31,878 nt of DNA from the IMG/VR virus record IMGVR_UViG_3300002920_000008, positions 1 through 31,878 of that record. The stretch is one strand, 5' to 3'. Shown here piece by piece: positions 3,519-31,878 of the stretch. The DNA is from a virus. The position numbers were made by a program, and so were the translations under genes. The first letter of the stretch is position 1, and each line of letters opens with the position of its first letter. The notes beneath the pieces were generated by a model that saw only the letters and a program-made list of their open reading frames with translations, was not told the origin of the DNA and did no database searches.

Positions 3519-4451
3519 TTATCTCGCGCTGCTGTTTGTGCTTTTCTTCCATAATTCATAACCGGCGTTGTTAGCAAACAACTTTTCAACGCTTTTTAAT
3601 CTTTTGCCAGGTGATGAAAATCCTGAAAACACAGTTTTCGATTTTGCCCATATCAAGTGCAGCCATTTAGGTGCATTATACTCACTAACAAATACTGGGT
3701 TACTATTTTCTGTTACCCAAGTCCAGAATTTTGCATGATCAAAACCATCTTTAGAATATTTTGCTGTTTCACAATACGGCGGATCGCAGTAAATGACTGA
3801 GTTTGGTTTAATTGTTACTTGTTCATATGATAGGTTTGTAAATGTGATTATGTTACTAAACGGGGATACTTGTGATAGATTTTGCGCTCTCGTTAACTCC
3901 AAGTTCTCAACTTGAAATAAATTAGAAAAATGTTTATATTTTAATTTTTTATGTGTTACCCTAATTGCTTTAGATGAATATTTTTTTCTTTCTTGTATGC
4001 TAAGGCTATCTGCGAACTTGTGAATTCCTAAGGCTTCCTTTGCGAAATCGTCAAACTCATTAAAAACGATTGCGTTGTGAATTGATTTTTTAAAAGGCTC
4101 AATGTCTTTTGAGTATAGGTAACCTTTTAAATTGTTACTAAAAGACCATATAATTTTAACATATGGGTCATTAGAGTTATAAAACTCATCTCTGGTAACA
4201 AACTTAGGTTTAAAATTTTCATAAGAGTATTTTCCAGCGATGCAGTCTTGTATAAACTGCGTTTGACCTTGGTTAATTTCATTAAAATGAAAGTGTTTCC
4301 ATTTGTGTCTGAATCTAAGGACAGCGCAATGGGTAACAGAGAAACCGCCGCCGAACAGGTCATATAGATTTTCAGCTTCTGGTAACAAGGATAATATTTT
4401 GGTAGCGATTCTGCTTTTGCTACCCAAGTAGCTTACACCAAATTCAGCCAT
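3519..4451 (-). CDS. Dam-family (D12 class, alpha-type) N6-adenine DNA methyltransferase
   Basis: N-terminal YLGSKSRIATKI, the FGGGFSV AdoMet motif and the catalytic DPPY motif (VIYCDPPYCE), in the order typical of Dam-like enzymes. The target site is unknown. Confidence 0.8.
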   Translation of the reverse strand: MAEFGVSYLGSKSRIATKILSLLPEAENLYDLFGGGFSVTHCAVLRFRHKWKHFHFNEINQGQTQFIQDCIAGKYSYENFKPKFVTRDEFYNSNDPYVKIIWSFSNNLKGYLYSKDIEPFKKSIHNAIVFNEFDDFAKEALGIHKFADSLSIQERKKYSSKAIRVTHKKLKYKHFSNLFQVENLELTRAQNLSQVSPFSNIITFTNLSYEQVTIKPNSVIYCDPPYCETAKYSKDGFDHAKFWTWVTENSNPVFVSEYNAPKWLHLIWAKSKTVFSGFSSPGKRLKSVEKLFANNAGYELWKKSTNSSAR

Positions 4452-4959
4452 TTGTATGCAGCTTAAACCCGCACTGAGGGCATTTTAATTCTTTTGAGTT
4501 TCCAATTTTCTCACCCTCATTATAGTTTTCAACATCAGGCAGATCGATGTTACTAATCATGTCGATATCATGTTCCGAAAATCCCCAATCAAGCAAGTCA
4601 TTAAGGTCAAAATCAGATTTTAGCTTTTGGAAGTCCCAATCGCCCGCGATGTTCTTGTTCATTCTAATGATAACAGCTTCTTCTTGCTTTGGTGTTAACA
4701 TTCTATCGGGAACGTAAACATCTATTTCTTGGTTTGGGTCTTCTTCAAGTAACACTTCGAATCGCGCGTGCCCCGATAGAATTGTGTTGTCTAGATTGAT
4801 ATTAATAGGCTGCGCAAACCCTATTTCATTGATTGATTTTCTAAGCTCTTGCTTTCCAGAATCTGAAATTATTCGAGGATTCTTGTTATAGGGTTTTAAC
4901 TCCGAAATCTTTCTTTTCTCTAGTTTCCAGTTAATTATTTTGTTCATATGTAAGATCAT
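4444..4959 (-). CDS. ParB-like nuclease (ParBc) domain protein with C-terminal CxxC zinc-ribbon-like tail
   Basis: ISELKPYNKNPR ... LRKSINEIGFAQPI ... LSGHARFE matches the ParB N-terminal domain pattern. It overlaps the methyltransferase gene by 8 nt, a common phage pairing. Confidence 0.7.
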   Translation of the reverse strand: MILHMNKIINWKLEKRKISELKPYNKNPRIISDSGKQELRKSINEIGFAQPININLDNTILSGHARFEVLLEEDPNQEIDVYVPDRMLTPKQEEAVIIRMNKNIAGDWDFQKLKSDFDLNDLLDWGFSEHDIDMISNIDLPDVENYNEGEKIGNSKELKCPQCGFKLHTNG

Positions 4960-4988
4960 AATAATATTGCATTAGAAATAGCAACATG

Positions 4989-5451
4989 AAACTTACCAAG
5001 CTGAGTTATTTTGTAAGCTTTGTCCTAATAACTAATAATTCTAATTTGTAATGGTAACGAAAGTTGGTTTTGAATAGCTTCTGGATGGTTACCTGAAAGT
5101 GTTACCTAGACATGCGCGCATTGCCTTGAGCTGAGCAGAGCAAGGCTTATAGATGAGCGGGTGTTACTACTCAACTGGCTCTCAATCTTACTTCACCCTA
5201 GCTTGTGTAGTAACAAGCAACCCTTAGTGTAATCGGGTAGTTAGGTTTTCATTATAGCCGAGGGCAAGCAATCGAACTTCACTCGCGCAGTCCGTTATGG
5301 TCTCACATTCTCATGTAAGGGTCTTAGCTTCCCAAGACGAGACATTGCCCGTCGCCTCGCTTTCGCTGAGGCACGCATATTTACGACCGGTTACAAGCTT
5401 GATCTGGCTTAGCTTCACCGTGTGGGCTATGCGTATACCCCTGACCAGATC
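4989..5451 (-). ncRNA. Candidate ~460-nt structured non-coding RNA or long structured leader (family not recognised)
   Basis: No credible ORF. GC is about 49% over 5101-5460, against about 40% for the genome. There are at least nine perfect 5-10 bp helices, including a three-way junction. On the minus strand there are GAAA and GAGA tetraloops and G-U pairs where the plus strand would have A-C. A promoter sits directly upstream. The ends are approximate. Confidence 0.35.
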
Positions 5452-5458
5452 AAAATCG

Positions 5459-5487
5459 AATATAGGGGAAATGTGGCGGTTTAACAA
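5459..5487 (-). promoter_or_regulatory. Sigma70-type promoter TTGTTA-17-TATATT driving the structured region
   Basis: The minus strand reads TTGTTAaaccgccacatttccccTATATT. The predicted start near 5451 coincides with the first base of the 7-bp helix 5445-5451/5401-5407. Confidence 0.4.
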
Positions 5488-5522
5488 GGTGTTTTTAGGA
5501 GAGTTATGATTAGAGTGAGGTG

Positions 5523-5558
5523 GAAAAAAAAGAGACGAGCTTTTGGGGCTCGCCTCTG
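5523..5558 (-). terminator. Intrinsic terminator, functional orientation minus strand
   Basis: A 10-bp stem (5531-5540/5548-5557) that is perfect on the minus strand apart from one G-U pair, but has an A-C mismatch on the plus strand. On the minus strand it is followed by eight U. The plus strand has no U tract after the stem. Confidence 0.7.
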
Positions 5559-5660
5559 AAAAAAACGCATGGTTATGTGGGCTATATGATCATGCACTTG
5601 CTAATGTAACTGCAATGTGAATAGAAGTAAAGCGATTTAAATCAACGTGAGGGGGGTTAT

Positions 5661-6482
5661 ATGAGATGGGTCAAGCTCTACACCAATGTCCATAACAGTG
5701 AGCCGATGAGAGAGCTACTGTCCCAGGTCGGTCACATCGCGTTATGTTACTACATTTTGCTTGAAATGTGTGCAGAAAAGTTAAGCTGTGAGGGTAAAAT
5801 TCTTACAGAAAGTGATATGGTATTTAGTTTTGAAGAGAGAATTTTGCGGGAGCGGATGAGGTTATCGCCTCGGAAGCTAAGAGAGTTTTTAAAAATTTCT
5901 TCAGAAAAATTTAAATTTTCTTTAGAAATTTCTGAAAATTTTTTTAAAATTAAAATGCCTATGTTGCTGAAATTGTTACATACTGATCTAAAAAAATCAA
6001 GAGCAAATCAAGAGCAAATCAAGAGCAAATCAAGAACAAAACGTGAACAAGTCAAGAGTAGCACGCAGGTGACCACGGTTACCGGTGAAGGTTCTGGGGT
6101 TTTGAGCAAAACAACAGAAGAAAGGCTTGCTGAAAAGGAGGCATCGAGTCAAAACAGGAGGATTAAGGAGGCTTATATAGAGGCTTACAAAGCTAAGTAT
6201 GGTGTTGAGCCATTGACACAGAATGCAACTTTTAACTCTCAGTGCAATATGCTTAGGAAGAAAGTCGGTTTTGAGACTGCTATAGAGCTAGTGAAGTTTT
6301 ACCTTAATCACCAGAAATCTTTTTATGCGTCTAAGACTCATAGCTTTGGACTCTTGTTAGCAGATGCTGAGACTTTGGTAGCACAAATGCGGATGGGTGT
6401 TACCGTTACCGGATTTGAATCAAGACAGATTGAGGAAAGCGCAGGGTTAATGGCGCAACTAGAAAGATTAAGGAGGAAATAA
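5661..6482 (+). CDS. Replisome organizer / replication initiator-like protein
   Basis: The N-terminus MRWVKLYTNVHNSEPMRELL...YYILLEMCAEK resembles the phage replisome organizer N-terminal domain. The SD GAGGGGGG lies upstream. The gene contains phased iterons and is the first gene of the rightward early operon. Confidence 0.55.
   Translation: MRWVKLYTNVHNSEPMRELLSQVGHIALCYYILLEMCAEKLSCEGKILTESDMVFSFEERILRERMRLSPRKLREFLKISSEKFKFSLEISENFFKIKMPMLLKLLHTDLKKSRANQEQIKSKSRTKREQVKSSTQVTTVTGEGSGVLSKTTEERLAEKEASSQNRRIKEAYIEAYKAKYGVEPLTQNATFNSQCNMLRKKVGFETAIELVKFYLNHQKSFYASKTHSFGLLLADAETLVAQMRMGVTVTGFESRQIEESAGLMAQLERLRRK
5997..6060. repeat. 11-bp phased iterons (TCAAGAGCAAA x3 perfect, then degenerate copies), putative replication origin inside the organizer gene
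   Basis: Copies start at 5997, 6008, 6019, 6030 (one mismatch) and 6052. All are in 11-bp register, about one helical turn. Confidence 0.6.
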
Positions 6483-29278: not shown

Positions 29279-30075
29279 TGATACGACGTATTATTAAGTT
29301 TTTCAAAGGCGTATTTAAATCAAAACATTCTGTAAGTTCTTCAAGCGAAGATAATGCATCATTTGAAACACTTGGCGAATCACCTGTTTTATCTGATATG
29401 CCCACAAGTCAAAAGAAAGTGTTACTGAGATATCCGAAGGCCATTGAAGGGCGTAGAATGGTTACTTATGGACGATATAGATATGGTTATCCTGAGGGGG
29501 TTGTTATACATTATACAGCCGGCTGGGATCGTGATTTTAAAGATGCATTAAACACTTTTAACTGGGGTGTTGATGAAAAGCTTTGTTTTGATCTTATAGC
29601 TCCGAAGGGAGAGTTAATAACGGGCGCTCCTTTGGACGAGTTTGGATCTCATGCGGGTTTAAGCAAATGGAAAGGGTTACCAGGCGATAGGCTTTCAAAG
29701 TTTTTAAGAGGAATTGAGGTAGCAAGTGGCGGGAAGTTAAATAGGAATCTTGAGACTGATTTCCATAGGAAATACACAGATGATCAAGTTAGGACCCTTG
29801 ATTTTACAACACCTGAGTGGGGTCAAGCTGGAATCTATTCAAAATTCACTAAGGAGCAAGAGGCTACTTTAACTGATTATATATTGTGGCTTTATAAGAA
29901 TTCTCCAATTAGAAACGGCGAGAGGGTTTTTAAACTAGACTTTGTTTTGGCACATCACGAGGTGTCAGGACTTGCGGGTTTAGGTTACTGGAGAAAGCCT
30001 GACTGTGGTGGATGTCTTTCGATGCCGATGAATATGTATCGGGATTATTTAAAGGAACTAGCTCGTGGCATTTAA
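29278..30075 (+). CDS. N-acetylmuramoyl-L-alanine amidase (Amidase_2 / T7-lysozyme-like) endolysin
   Basis: GVVIHYTAGW, LAHHEVSG and RKPDCGG give the His/His/Cys zinc triad pattern of Amidase_2. The start is moved to the ATG at 29278 (TAATG overlap) from the TTG at 29263. Confidence 0.7.
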   Translation: MIRRIIKFFKGVFKSKHSVSSSSEDNASFETLGESPVLSDMPTSQKKVLLRYPKAIEGRRMVTYGRYRYGYPEGVVIHYTAGWDRDFKDALNTFNWGVDEKLCFDLIAPKGELITGAPLDEFGSHAGLSKWKGLPGDRLSKFLRGIEVASGGKLNRNLETDFHRKYTDDQVRTLDFTTPEWGQAGIYSKFTKEQEATLTDYILWLYKNSPIRNGERVFKLDFVLAHHEVSGLAGLGYWRKPDCGGCLSMPMNMYRDYLKELARGI

Positions 30076-31878
30076 TGTTACCAAGAGAGCAAGAGCACTA
30101 TTTGAACAAACTGAGATTAAGCCTAACCTAGTTTTAAAGATCGACGGTTATAACAAGTTATTTGGCGTACAGGCTATAAGAGATGATGCGATCTTTGGTT
30201 ATAATAACATTGAATTTGGTGACGTTGGTCTTGTGTTTGGAGGGCTTGCAGAAATATCGGATCAACGTGACTTAATATCATTAAGCGGGACTAGTACCGA
30301 GATCAACCAGCAATTGGAGCCGGATCAGGGTAACGTTTCAAGTGTTCAGAAGATGACAATACGCTTGGTTGATCAAGCTGAGGAGATGACTAGGCTTGTT
30401 AGTCCGGGGTTCGTGTTTGATGATATTTTGTACAAGTATGCTCAAGTGTATATTGGACACACTGACAGCGCTTTCCCTGATGACTATATTGAGCTTTTTA
30501 ATGGTAACATTCAAGGGGTTAGATACGGAGCTGGATTTGTAGAGCTTGAGATAGTGAACCCTGAGGATTTTCAGAGGGCTGAGCTATTTACGAAGGCCGA
30601 GGCTATTGTTACTCAACCAATTAACTATAATTCTCGTAACATTCAAGGGATATTATTTAAGGCACATGACCATGTTACTGGCGTTGTTCAGGTAAATATC
30701 GTTTCAGGTGCGAGCGGTGATAACGCAGTTGTATCGGTTTCAGGTAATGACATAACTATACAGATTAACACATCTGCAACCAAGATAAAGACAATTAAAA
30801 AGGCTGTTGACGATGATTCATCATGCCGTCAGTTAGTAGAGGTTAGTTACTTAGCAGGGACTAACAAGGAGGCTATAGCTACTACTACAGGCGGCTTTGT
30901 ACAGCTTTTAAATGATACCACTATCTACTTAGATGACGTTAAGTTGTTTTTAGATCCTGTCGGTAACCTTTTTAAGACTTATATTAAGGTTGGCGAGGAG
31001 ATAATAGAATACACGGGCAGGGATGTAGTTAACAACACGCTAACAGGATGTGTAAGAGCGTCATTAAATACGATAGGCAAATATCACAAAAGTGGCGAGA
31101 CGGCTGAGAGTTTTTACAAGTTGGGTGATGGGACAAGTAACAATGGCAATGCGATTGACTTAGCTTTAAAGGTGTTACTGAGCGGTCAGGAAGACCCTAA
31201 TTACATCACGAATTTACCAGTGTTAGCTTTTGCTAAGTACGGGACTTTTGACACAAACCCTAATGCTGTATACTTTAGTAACCAAGATTTAGAACGAGAG
31301 TTTGGCATAGTTGCTGGAGATTTTGTTACTATAACTGGTGCTACCAACGCAGCCAACAATATAGTTAATTTACCTGTTAAGACAGTTATTAAGGGCAATG
31401 GCTTTAGTGCTTTGGAGTTTAATCATACTTTTGTAATTGAGTCTACTGGTGCAGTTGCCAGTGCAAAGAGTCAATACAATGTGTTACCTGACGGCCTAGG
31501 GTTATTACCTAGGCAAGTGGATATTTTAAGGTTTTTAGAGATCAAGAAAATATATTATTCTGATATCTCTTTAAATGAGATATATATAAAAAACACGGTT
31601 AGGGCAAGCGAGTTATTAAACAAGCAGTTATATTTGCCATCTGGGTTATTCTCGTTACCAAGAAGAGGAAGGGTTAGTGTCGGTTTTCTAGCACCTCCAT
31701 TGTTTGATCCTCTGATGAAGACATTAAACCTTGATACCGTGAAGAATATTGACGGGGTAACAATCAACAGAACGACGACAAGGAACTTTTATAACGCGAT
31801 TATATACAAATATAACGAGGACTCTTTAGAAGACAAGTTCACAAGCGGTCGAGTCTATTTAAGTGTAGACTCTACGAA
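30065..31878 (+). CDS. N-terminal part of the ~915-aa wrap-around tail tip / host-specificity-like protein (continues at 1..1011)
   Basis: The frame is open from the TAG at 30059-30061 to the window end with no stop. The first start candidate is GTG at 30065, overlapping the amidase stop. The ORF is absent from the track because it runs off the edge. Confidence 0.7.
   Translation, partial: MAFNVTKRARALFEQTEIKPNLVLKIDGYNKLFGVQAIRDDAIFGYNNIEFGDVGLVFGGLAEISDQRDLISLSGTSTEINQQLEPDQGNVSSVQKMTIRLVDQAEEMTRLVSPGFVFDDILYKYAQVYIGHTDSAFPDDYIELFNGNIQGVRYGAGFVELEIVNPEDFQRAELFTKAEAIVTQPINYNSRNIQGILFKAHDHVTGVVQVNIVSGASGDNAVVSVSGNDITIQINTSATKIKTIKKAVDDDSSCRQLVEVSYLAGTNKEAIATTTGGFVQLLNDTTIYLDDVKLFLDPVGNLFKTYIKVGEEIIEYTGRDVVNNTLTGCVRASLNTIGKYHKSGETAESFYKLGDGTSNNGNAIDLALKVLLSGQEDPNYITNLPVLAFAKYGTFDTNPNAVYFSNQDLEREFGIVAGDFVTITGATNAANNIVNLPVKTVIKGNGFSALEFNHTFVIESTGAVASAKSQYNVLPDGLGLLPRQVDILRFLEIKKIYYSDISLNEIYIKNTVRASELLNKQLYLPSGLFSLPRRGRVSVGFLAPPLFDPLMKTLNLDTVKNIDGVTINRTTTRNFYNAIIYKYNEDSLEDKFTSGRVYLSVDST
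31802..31878. repeat. 77-bp terminal overlap identical to bases 1-77 (circular closure of the contig)
   Basis: Direct comparison shows atatacaaatataacgagg...gtgtagactctacgaa at both ends. The reading frame of the flanking ORF is preserved across the join. Confidence 0.95.

Follow-up and report, generated by a model that had tools for sequence, protein, structure and literature searches.

A conserved candidate structured RNA with a 5′ double-pseudoknot domain upstream of a ParB-like gene in three phage lineages

To our knowledge, large structured RNAs encoded by phages are rare, and a function is known for almost none of them. The put element of HK022, two simple stem-loops of ~70 nt, acts in processive antitermination, and the leader of T4 gene 32 contains a pseudoknot of ~30 nt. 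The C4 RNA of P1/P7, which constitutes an Rfam family, and the CI RNA of P4 are ~70–80 nt long, are processed from operon leaders and pair with repeated downstream sites. GOLLD and ROOL are Rfam families of large structured RNAs associated with phages and prophages. Their structures, determined recently, are assemblies of RNA alone (bioRxiv 10.1101/2024.12.08.627333), and a study that mined structured RNA candidates from IMG/VR phage contigs, and that mentions the T4 gene 32 pseudoknot, reported candidates of 29–151 nt (mean 67) with at least three distinct IMG/VR regions required (Comput Struct Biotechnol J 2023, PMC10690425). Here we analyze an element of ~365 nt on the minus strand (5087–5452) of IMGVR_UViG_3300002920_000008, a JGI metagenome contig of 31,878 bp from an uncultured tailed phage with a genome of ~32 kb; this whole stretch is referred to as the window. 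The element lies in a 701-bp gap (4960–5660) between divergent early operons and very probably functions as some type of structured RNA encoded on the minus strand.

An earlier note, made from the window by itself, had proposed for this gap a structured minus-strand RNA with its own promoter, either stand-alone or the leader of the ParB-like/methyltransferase operon. Comparison with related phages bears out this proposal. On balance we favor its first form, a stand-alone accessory RNA gene that would be transcribed leftward from its own promoter and would act as a folded RNA, probably in trans. The decisive feature of the RNA is a double pseudoknot at its 5′ end, which the earlier note had missed.

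Conservation of the element and its 5′ domain

The ParB-like protein encoded beside the gap has 226 relatives at E ≤ 1e-10, many of them on contigs of ~32 kb. The closest relative, P0008, shares 83% amino-acid identity and is encoded on two contigs, L134 and L135, both of which carry the element immediately upstream of the ParB-like gene, oriented as on the minus strand of the window (E = 8e-75 and 4e-48, respectively, by nhmmer; blastn identity 84% over 385 nt). Conservation between the window and L134 extends from 5464 to ~5087 and then decays into an AT-rich spacer. A third lineage, L164, encodes the ParB relative P0012, which is 61% identical to the window's protein; its gap of 642 nt contains a GC-richer stretch of ~280 nt, and over the first ~85 nt of this stretch the alignment with the element is convincing. 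A protein search with the ParB-like sequence and look-ups of the contigs had given L134, L135 and L164; their comparison with the window, as described below, revealed compensatory pairs.

The conserved core spans 5087–5452 on the minus strand (~365 nt, as delimited by nhmmer, the 83% identity and alignments A2 and A3), which is shorter than the ~460 nt first estimated. It is 83% identical between the window and L134, whereas the third codon positions of the adjacent ParB-like and methyltransferase genes are 54% and 53% identical. Two minus-strand blocks within the core are invariant between these lineages, one of 44 nt (5247–5290, CUGCGCGAGUGAAGUUCGAUUGCUUGCCCUCGGCUAUAAUGAAA), which contains a perfect TATAAT, and one of 33 nt (5128–5160, from the alignment). 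The 55 substitutions in the element are spread 19/19/17 across the three phases, without 3-nt periodicity, and the indels measure 1–2 nt; the codon-like conservation that would betray a missed protein gene, a check named in the earlier note, was thus not seen.

The gap 4960–5660 had been described as free of any credible open reading frame (ORF), and it proved so both under the standard code 11 and with recoded stops. Two ORFs of 70 and 58 amino acids within the element are disrupted in L134 by stops and frameshifts, the ORFs inside the element had no match in Pfam or PHROG, and the marks of a protein gene (a kept ORF, 3-nt periodicity, indels in threes) were absent from it. A missed or recoded protein gene was rejected on these grounds. 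Because the core is so much better preserved than adjacent third codon positions, these data indicate that the element is non-coding sequence under purifying selection.

The first ~80 nt (5373–5452, minus strand) form a domain common to the window, L134 and L164. Its helix P1 (5444–5452/5400–5408) encloses a short hairpin, P2 (GGG/CCC, 5439–5441/5424–5426). The loop of P2 pairs with sequence downstream of P1 to give PKa (5428–5434/5373–5379), and the strand that follows P2 also pairs downstream of P1 to give PKb (5417–5421/5387–5391). PKa and PKb are each crossed by P1, which makes the domain a double pseudoknot, with the helix order P1-P2-PKa-P2′-PKb-P1′-PKb′-PKa′. P1 corresponds to the helix 5401–5407/5445–5451 of the earlier note, which the comparison supports; the smaller helices that had been placed inside it (5410–5413/5426–5429 and 5416–5418/5422–5424) found no support in the comparison with L134.

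The 7-mer of PKa reads ACGCAUA in the window, CUACAUA in L134 and GGCAAAC in L164, and each has a perfect 7-bp partner 16–22 nt past P1; the chance of such a partner is 0.7–1.7% per lineage. The minimum free energy (MFE) fold of L164 alone predicts both PKa and PKb. In a MAFFT alignment of the three lineages, 90% of the cells of the 5′ domain are paired, a value that none of 500 shuffles reached, and slid controls gave 27–40%. When the alignment was guided by structure, 69 of 72 cells were paired and compensatory change was present in 10 of 24 pairs.

Body of the RNA and its strand

RNAalifold applied to the window and L134 gave 95 pairs, with 8 compensatory and 0 broken, and the column-shuffle z of this alignment was −4.17 when read as minus-sense RNA and −2.95 when read as plus-sense RNA. 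A curated model for the same two lineages contains 72 pairs; 99.3% of its cells are paired (1 of 144 pair-by-sequence cells is unpaired), and its 9 compensatory and 6 one-sided changes all keep pairing, compared with 29–42% paired cells and 0–1 compensatory changes in slid controls, figures that have to be read with the fact that this structure was derived from the same sequences used to test it.

All features of the body are given on the minus strand. Behind the 5′ domain lies a GAAA-tetraloop hairpin (5354–5372, GCCUCAGC-GAAA-GCGAGGC, with one bulged A). The helix 5350–5360/5365–5375 of the earlier note is preserved in L134 as this hairpin, on which covariation is neutral because it is invariant between the two lineages. 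The two GNRA loops that had been pointed out, GAAA at 5361–5364 and GAGA at 5309–5312, are both present. Hairpin Pc (GACGGG/CUCGUC, 5336–5353) shows in L134 one compensatory change, from C-G to U-A, and one change from G-U to G-C. It competes with the junction helix 5345–5350/5262–5267 and accounts for more of the changes; the three-way junction that this helix had been thought to close (with 5300–5304/5339–5343 and 5321–5325/5334–5338) is contradicted by L134 or explains it less well. Hairpin Pd (CUUACAU-GAGA-AUGUGAG, 5302–5319) carries its GNRA loop on 7 bp and keeps its pairs through one compensatory and two one-sided changes, so that the shorter helix 5305–5308/5313–5316 read earlier holds as the inner part of a longer GAGA hairpin.

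Hairpin Pf (CGGACU/AGUUCG, 5273–5294), within the 44-nt block, is weakly supported, with one change from G-U to A-U and no other. A long irregular hairpin domain of 84 nt (5188–5271) comprises 22 pairs in three segments, with three compensatory changes, two one-sided changes and no broken pair. This domain fits L134 better than the hairpin 5201–5218 (5201–5206/5213–5218), which together with the helix 5159–5163/5194–5198 and the long-range pair 5113–5118/5284–5289 belonged to the earlier model and went unsupported on comparison with L134. The hairpin GCCUUG/CAAGGC (5141–5146/5123–5128) from that model was upheld, since L134 keeps 5 of its 6 pairs, two of them as G-U (alignment A3). The last stretch conserved between the window and L134 is the motif GGUAAC-N8-GUAAC (5087–5106), which is recognizable in L164 (83% over 24 nt between L134 and L164 in this region) and may represent a processing site or the 3′ end of the RNA. 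Beyond it, outside the conserved element, lies the AT-rich spacer (4960–5086), which is not conserved and measures ~100 nt in the window, ~30 nt in L134 and ~70 nt in L164; the distal stem 4989–4996/5013–5020, once counted as part of the RNA, sits in this spacer and gained no support.

Words resembling G(U/G)GAAG(C)U(A/U)(A/C)G recur on the minus strand at 5408–5418, 5323–5333, 5273–5282 and 5183–5196. They are present in the window and L134 and not in L164, their spacings are 85, ~49 and 86 nt, and they are not enriched relative to shuffles of the window.

All one-sided changes interconvert Watson-Crick and G-U pairs on the minus-sense RNA and would be A-C mismatches on the plus strand, and several of them fall in helices where strand-neutral compensatory changes are found as well. 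When the MFE fold of the window was checked blind on L134, the minus strand showed 5 compensatory changes, 9 one-sided changes and 18 broken pairs, and the plus strand 0, 16 and 22, respectively. The fold z of L164 was −1.63 for the ParB strand versus +0.10 for the other. The minus-strand orientation proposed before is supported by these three lines of evidence. Since 18 pairs of the window's MFE fold are broken in L134, that fold is real only in part, and its long-range helices, broken in L134, were discarded. A 13-nt inverted repeat (5162–5174/5203–5215, 92% complementary) dominates the MFE fold of the window and is disrupted in L134.

The GC content of 5101–5460 is 49.2%, in agreement with the ~49% counted before, and no 360-nt window of the contig has a higher value (mean 39.5%, S.D. 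3.4); the richest coding windows reach 48%, only ~1–2 points below it, and 4960–5100 has 29.8%. Against dinucleotide shuffles, the MFE of the 471-nt stretch 4985–5455 gave z = −0.48 for the minus strand and +0.59 for the plus strand, and only 5255–5455 on the minus strand gets to z ~ −2. The locus had been called helix-dense. Every helix listed for it is literally complementary at its coordinates; their density in the window alone is no more than expected by chance, because z is ordinary against such shuffles.

Distribution, transcription and rival explanations

The leftward early operon contains the ParB-like gene (4444–4947/4959), a D12 adenine methyltransferase gene (3519–4451), small genes and a weak RusA-like match. 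The rightward operon starts with a replisome-organizer-like gene (5661–6482), followed by an exonuclease VIII/RecT pair and by terminase, head, tail and lysis genes; the nearest terminase from a cultured phage is 24% identical to that of the window. ParB-like family proteins have an invariant C-terminal CxxC (C156 and C159; residues 156–159 in alignment A4), which suggests a small C-terminal zinc ribbon. At the other end of the window, 30075–31878 has no listed ORF, and by eye a reading frame seems open up to the contig end; if this frame is real, the contig is either cut within a gene or a permuted circle.

The element is accessory and patchy in its distribution, with three phage lineages and ~3 of 45 related loci carrying it. 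It was not found in the ParB-family loci L136–L141, L162–L163, L166–L197 and L202–L206, and P0014, the ParB relative nearest to that of L164 (83% amino-acid identity), is encoded without it. A family-profile scan of viral contigs gave 32 ParB loci, none with the element, and a scan of viral contigs with the single ParB-like protein gave no relatives; relatives of the replication protein have upstream gaps of 120–500 nt that are AT-rich and lack the element. No match was obtained when the gap and the L164 element were compared by blastn with phage and plasmid collections, and a covariance model of the 5′ domain run against 58 sources (326 kb) recovered the three known copies only. An exact-pattern scan with GAAGCTAAG, run twice, gave chance coding matches only, and a 20-mer and a two-motif pattern gave none in viral contigs (IMG/VR copy). 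The 20 matches of an 18-mer in metagenome contigs and the 4 matches of a 5′-domain pattern in viral contigs were all due to chance.

Locus L165 was considered as a fourth homologue and rejected, as the 5′-domain model did not match it and the shared patches are weak. Its stretch 101–277, upstream of the ParB relative P0011, has 42% GC versus 38% for the locus and a 9-bp helix, UAGGCCCUA...UAGGGCCUA; it may be a different leader RNA.

A promoter-like site, TTGTTA-17-TATATT (5459–5487, minus strand), precedes the element and matches the consensus at 9 of 12 positions. The earlier note had placed a promoter here with a start at ~5451. The hexamers are indeed present, and a −10-like hexamer stands 7 nt ahead of the first G of P1 in each of the three lineages (TATATT in the window, CATATT in L134 and TATTTT in L164); the −35 hexamer is visible in the window only. 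Because the −10-like hexamer keeps this distance in all three, a 5′ end at ~5451 is supported, and we infer that the element has its own promoter at this site.

A rightward promoter-like site, TTAACA-18-TATGAT (5481–5510, plus strand, 10 of 12 matches), has a −35 that overlaps that of the 5459–5487 site, and the back-to-back pair looks like a divergent switch region. On the minus strand at 5523–5557, a strong intrinsic-terminator hairpin followed by a T run precedes the replisome-organizer gene by ~100 nt, antisense to its 5′-untranslated region (UTR). The same placement is seen in relatives, including ones without the RNA element (L138 5820–5844 and L164 1498–1536; by eye also L002, L127, L128, L130 and L136). 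The hairpin is placed much as lambda oop is, and no promoter that would drive a short antisense RNA was seen.

Another promoter-like site, TTGCTA-18-TATGAT (4955–4984, minus strand), lies outside the element and close to the ATG of the ParB-like gene at 4947. The −10 ends 6–7 nt before the ATG, without a Shine-Dalgarno sequence, in the window (4984–4955), in L134 (419–448) and in the element-less L138 (5967–5994), so the ParB-like mRNA looks leaderless and its gene independent of the element. The start MNKIINW at 4947 given by the gene caller fits a leaderless mRNA better than does the longer ORF from 4959. Because the ParB-like gene appears to have its own promoter just before its ATG and to be leaderless, we favor a stand-alone RNA over a leader, and the element would be an independent transcription unit.

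In the stand-alone reading, leftward transcription early in infection would proceed from a sigma-70-type promoter at 5487–5459, back-to-back with a rightward promoter of the replication operon, and would start at ~5451–5452, the first base of P1. The first ~80 nt would fold into the compact double pseudoknot, in which P1 encloses the 3-bp P2 while PKa and PKb pair downstream of P1. The remaining ~285 nt would form GNRA-capped hairpins, the 84-nt irregular hairpin and two long invariant blocks, single-stranded or engaged in tertiary structure, and the 3′ end at ~5087 would presumably arise through processing. Such an RNA would most likely act in trans, as a folded scaffold or decoy for a host or phage protein or small ligand, and would probably not serve the ParB-like/methyltransferase operon as a translated leader. 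A bolder form of this proposal, which we regard as speculative and unlikely, is that the shared ~80-nt double pseudoknot is the functional core of a new phage RNA class with variable bodies in each lineage, serving either as an aptamer or decoy that takes up a host factor or a small signaling molecule early in infection (RNA-based counter-defense or takeover) or as an undescribed self-cleaving ribozyme that sets its own 5′ end.

Several observations weigh against the stand-alone reading, and some of them are predicted equally by a cis-acting structured leader, in which transcription from 5487–5459 would run through the element into the ParB-like/methyltransferase operon and the fold would control expression by riboswitch-like sensing through the 5′ domain, processive antitermination, transcript stabilization or interference with the proximal promoter. 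The element lies on the same strand as, and directly upstream of, the ParB-like/methyltransferase pair in all three lineages, despite a methyltransferase of the D12 class in the window and L134 and of the C5 class in L164, and the 5′ domain is aptamer-like in its size and pseudoknotted compactness. No terminator or other 3′-end signal was found 3′ of the element (5452 to 4947 in the window; likewise in L134 and L164), so read-through into the operon is possible. The promoter of L164 is weak (8 of 12 matches by eye, unflagged by the promoter scan), the L134 contig stops short of the −35 region, and nothing points to a partner, target or ligand, since the element shares at most 11 nt of complementarity with other phage sequence. 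The structural case has its own weak points besides the origin of the curated model: the folding energy of the window alone is unexceptional; an unbiased count of helices that are free of gaps, 5 bp or longer and changed in a compensatory way gave 7 versus 4.1 ± 2.2 in shuffles (p ~0.1); L164 aligns past the 5′ domain only in short collinear patches; and the covariation statistics are thin, because there are only three lineages, two of them close. Nevertheless, a leader seems to us possible rather than probable. With a promoter abutting its ATG and no Shine-Dalgarno sequence, the ParB-like gene would be poorly translated from an internal AUG on a long transcript. Relatives have the same operon without the element, no expression platform (terminator/anti-terminator or sequestered ribosome-binding site) is evident, the spacer is unconserved and variable in length, and the putative aptamer is followed by another 285 nt of conserved structure.

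The other explanations account for less. If the element acted at the DNA level, it could be a replication origin, an array of partition or operator sites serving a repressor or the ParB-like protein, or a cluster of promoters, and its conservation would stem from binding sites for proteins and not from an RNA. This would suit a control region between divergent early operons, beside the replisome-organizer and ParB-like genes, with its AT-rich flank, long invariant blocks, the TATAAT in the 44-nt block and GUGAAG-like words at 85–86-nt spacings. Duplex DNA sites, however, have no need of compensatory changes that keep pairing across 20–90 nt, pseudoknots included, or of strand-specific wobble tolerance. 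The element is missing from the majority of relatives that share the replication and ParB-like genes, and neither iterons nor tandem repeats were found; an iteron or tandem array with a ~86-nt period was rejected for this reason and for the lack of enrichment of the repeated word. We therefore consider a DNA site a remote prospect. A self-processing or mobile RNA, either an undescribed self-cleaving ribozyme that makes the 5′ end at P1 or an intron-like relic, would explain nested pseudoknots at the extreme 5′ end, GNRA tetraloops and a patchy presence in the same slot of otherwise diverged phages, including the absence from the relative nearest to L164. It is highly unlikely, given the lack of any Rfam ribozyme or intron match even at E up to 10, a helix order unlike those of HDV-like ribozymes and the group I core, and the absence of an interrupted host gene, flanking repeats and an accompanying gene for an endonuclease or reverse transcriptase. 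The idea of a mobile element bounded by terminal repeats was rejected, no such repeats having been found. Finally, a chance GC-rich spacer or decaying gene remnant with coincidental helices would be in keeping with a folding energy no better than that of shuffles, with the short helices expected in any 470-nt stretch and with the few homologues. We give it almost no credence in view of the identity of 83% against 53–54% at neutral sites, the 44- and 33-nt invariant runs, the ten compensatory pairs of the 5′ domain across three lineages and the alignment z of −4.17.

Comparison with known RNAs

A search of the whole window with the 4227 covariance models of Rfam 15 at gathering thresholds gave no match. 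At E up to 10 for 4900–5700 and 5080–5460, and up to 5 for L134, L164 and L165, matches were at chance level only (11–32 bits versus thresholds of 34–90) and came from unrelated eukaryotic or terminator-like models. ARAGORN found no tRNA or tmRNA in the window, L134, L164 or L165. The earlier note had recognized no known family, and these searches agree with it. Two likenesses noticed by eye were dropped: a TPP-riboswitch likeness of GAUCUGG...CCAGAUC had no backing from Rfam, and a tRNA T-arm reading of GUUCGAUU had none from ARAGORN. An apparent tRNA 3′ half was seen on the reverse strand at 4085–4337 of L126, in the gap upstream of a distant replication-protein relative (T-arm GGGGTTCGAATCCCC, then ...GCCA). 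ARAGORN found no complete tRNA in this interval, and the half may be an attP core.

The element shows conservation above neutral together with compensatory pairs on one strand, which is the generic definition of a structured non-coding RNA, here in three lineages only. Most marks of more specific classes were absent. There is no riboswitch expression platform, as 5452–4947 contains no terminator-like site, no Shine-Dalgarno sequence is available to be sequestered and the spacer is not conserved. Placement in a 5′-UTR has evidence on both sides: the element lies upstream on the same strand, yet between it and the gene stands, in the window and L134, a promoter-like site whose −10 hexamer ends 6–7 nt short of the ATG, and the element-less L138 has this proximal promoter too. 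An intrinsically terminated small RNA of the lambda oop type does not fit, since the only terminator of the gap (5557–5531 plus a T run) is upstream of the element promoter. The order P1-P2-P3-P3′-P1′-P4-P2′ of HDV-like ribozymes is not present, nor did any HDV-type model of Rfam match. For a group I intron, the Intron_gpI model gave no match and no gene is interrupted on either side. A type III antitoxin RNA (ToxI-like) or other repeat array found no support from Tandem Repeats Finder, which reported none in 4800–5800; short two-copy families only are present. Elsewhere in the window the longest match or complement measures 11 nt, no more than chance would give, and an antisense regulator of the phage's own genes was rejected on this basis. 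Covariance models of the GOLLD, ROOL and OLE type did not match.

Each new family with comparative support is a candidate RNA-protein or RNA-ligand mechanism in host takeover. The compact size of this element (~365 nt, with a core of ~80 nt) makes synthesis, probing, imaging and use as bait feasible, and its presence or absence among similar ~32-kb phages provides a natural comparison. The locus also illustrates that an intergenic GC peak in an AT-rich phage can flag an RNA gene that single-sequence folding statistics miss.

In its architecture, the 5′ domain resembles H-type riboswitches, HDV-like ribozymes and group I cores, being likewise a compact fold of ~80 nt in which a hairpin loop and the strand beside it both find their partners beyond the enclosing helix. 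The succession P1(5′)-hairpin-PKb(5′)-P1(3′)-PKb(3′) recalls the P3/P7 crossing of group I introns; the element differs from these in lacking P1/P2 substrate helices, exons and the G-binding features of P7. In its position, it resembles HK022 put and the T4 gene 32 leader, as a folded RNA that would open an early leftward transcript, and as in gene 32 an AU-rich unstructured stretch separates the 5′ pseudoknot from the gene. It differs from both in its ~365 nt of conserved sequence, in a downstream gene that has its own promoter-like site and is apparently leaderless, and in the relatives that lack it. Like the C4 and CI RNAs, it is a structured RNA that a small-genome phage carries in a switch region, immediately ahead of an early operon; unlike them, it has no complementarity longer than 11 nt in the window and no Rfam match.

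Compared by description, the candidates mined from IMG/VR (PMC10690425) are of the same kind, conserved intergenic phage RNAs with covariation, and the element is larger (~365 nt). GOLLD and ROOL are, like the element on the reading that we favor, phage-encoded and stand-alone, GC-enriched, multi-helical and patchy in distribution, with pseudoknots and GNRA loops and no known partner. They are larger (~500–800 nt versus ~365 nt) and are built of different helices, and the element has no match to their covariance models, no sign of multimerization and three lineages. Taken together, these comparisons indicate that the element is a new RNA family, of the same kind as other structured RNAs borne by phages.

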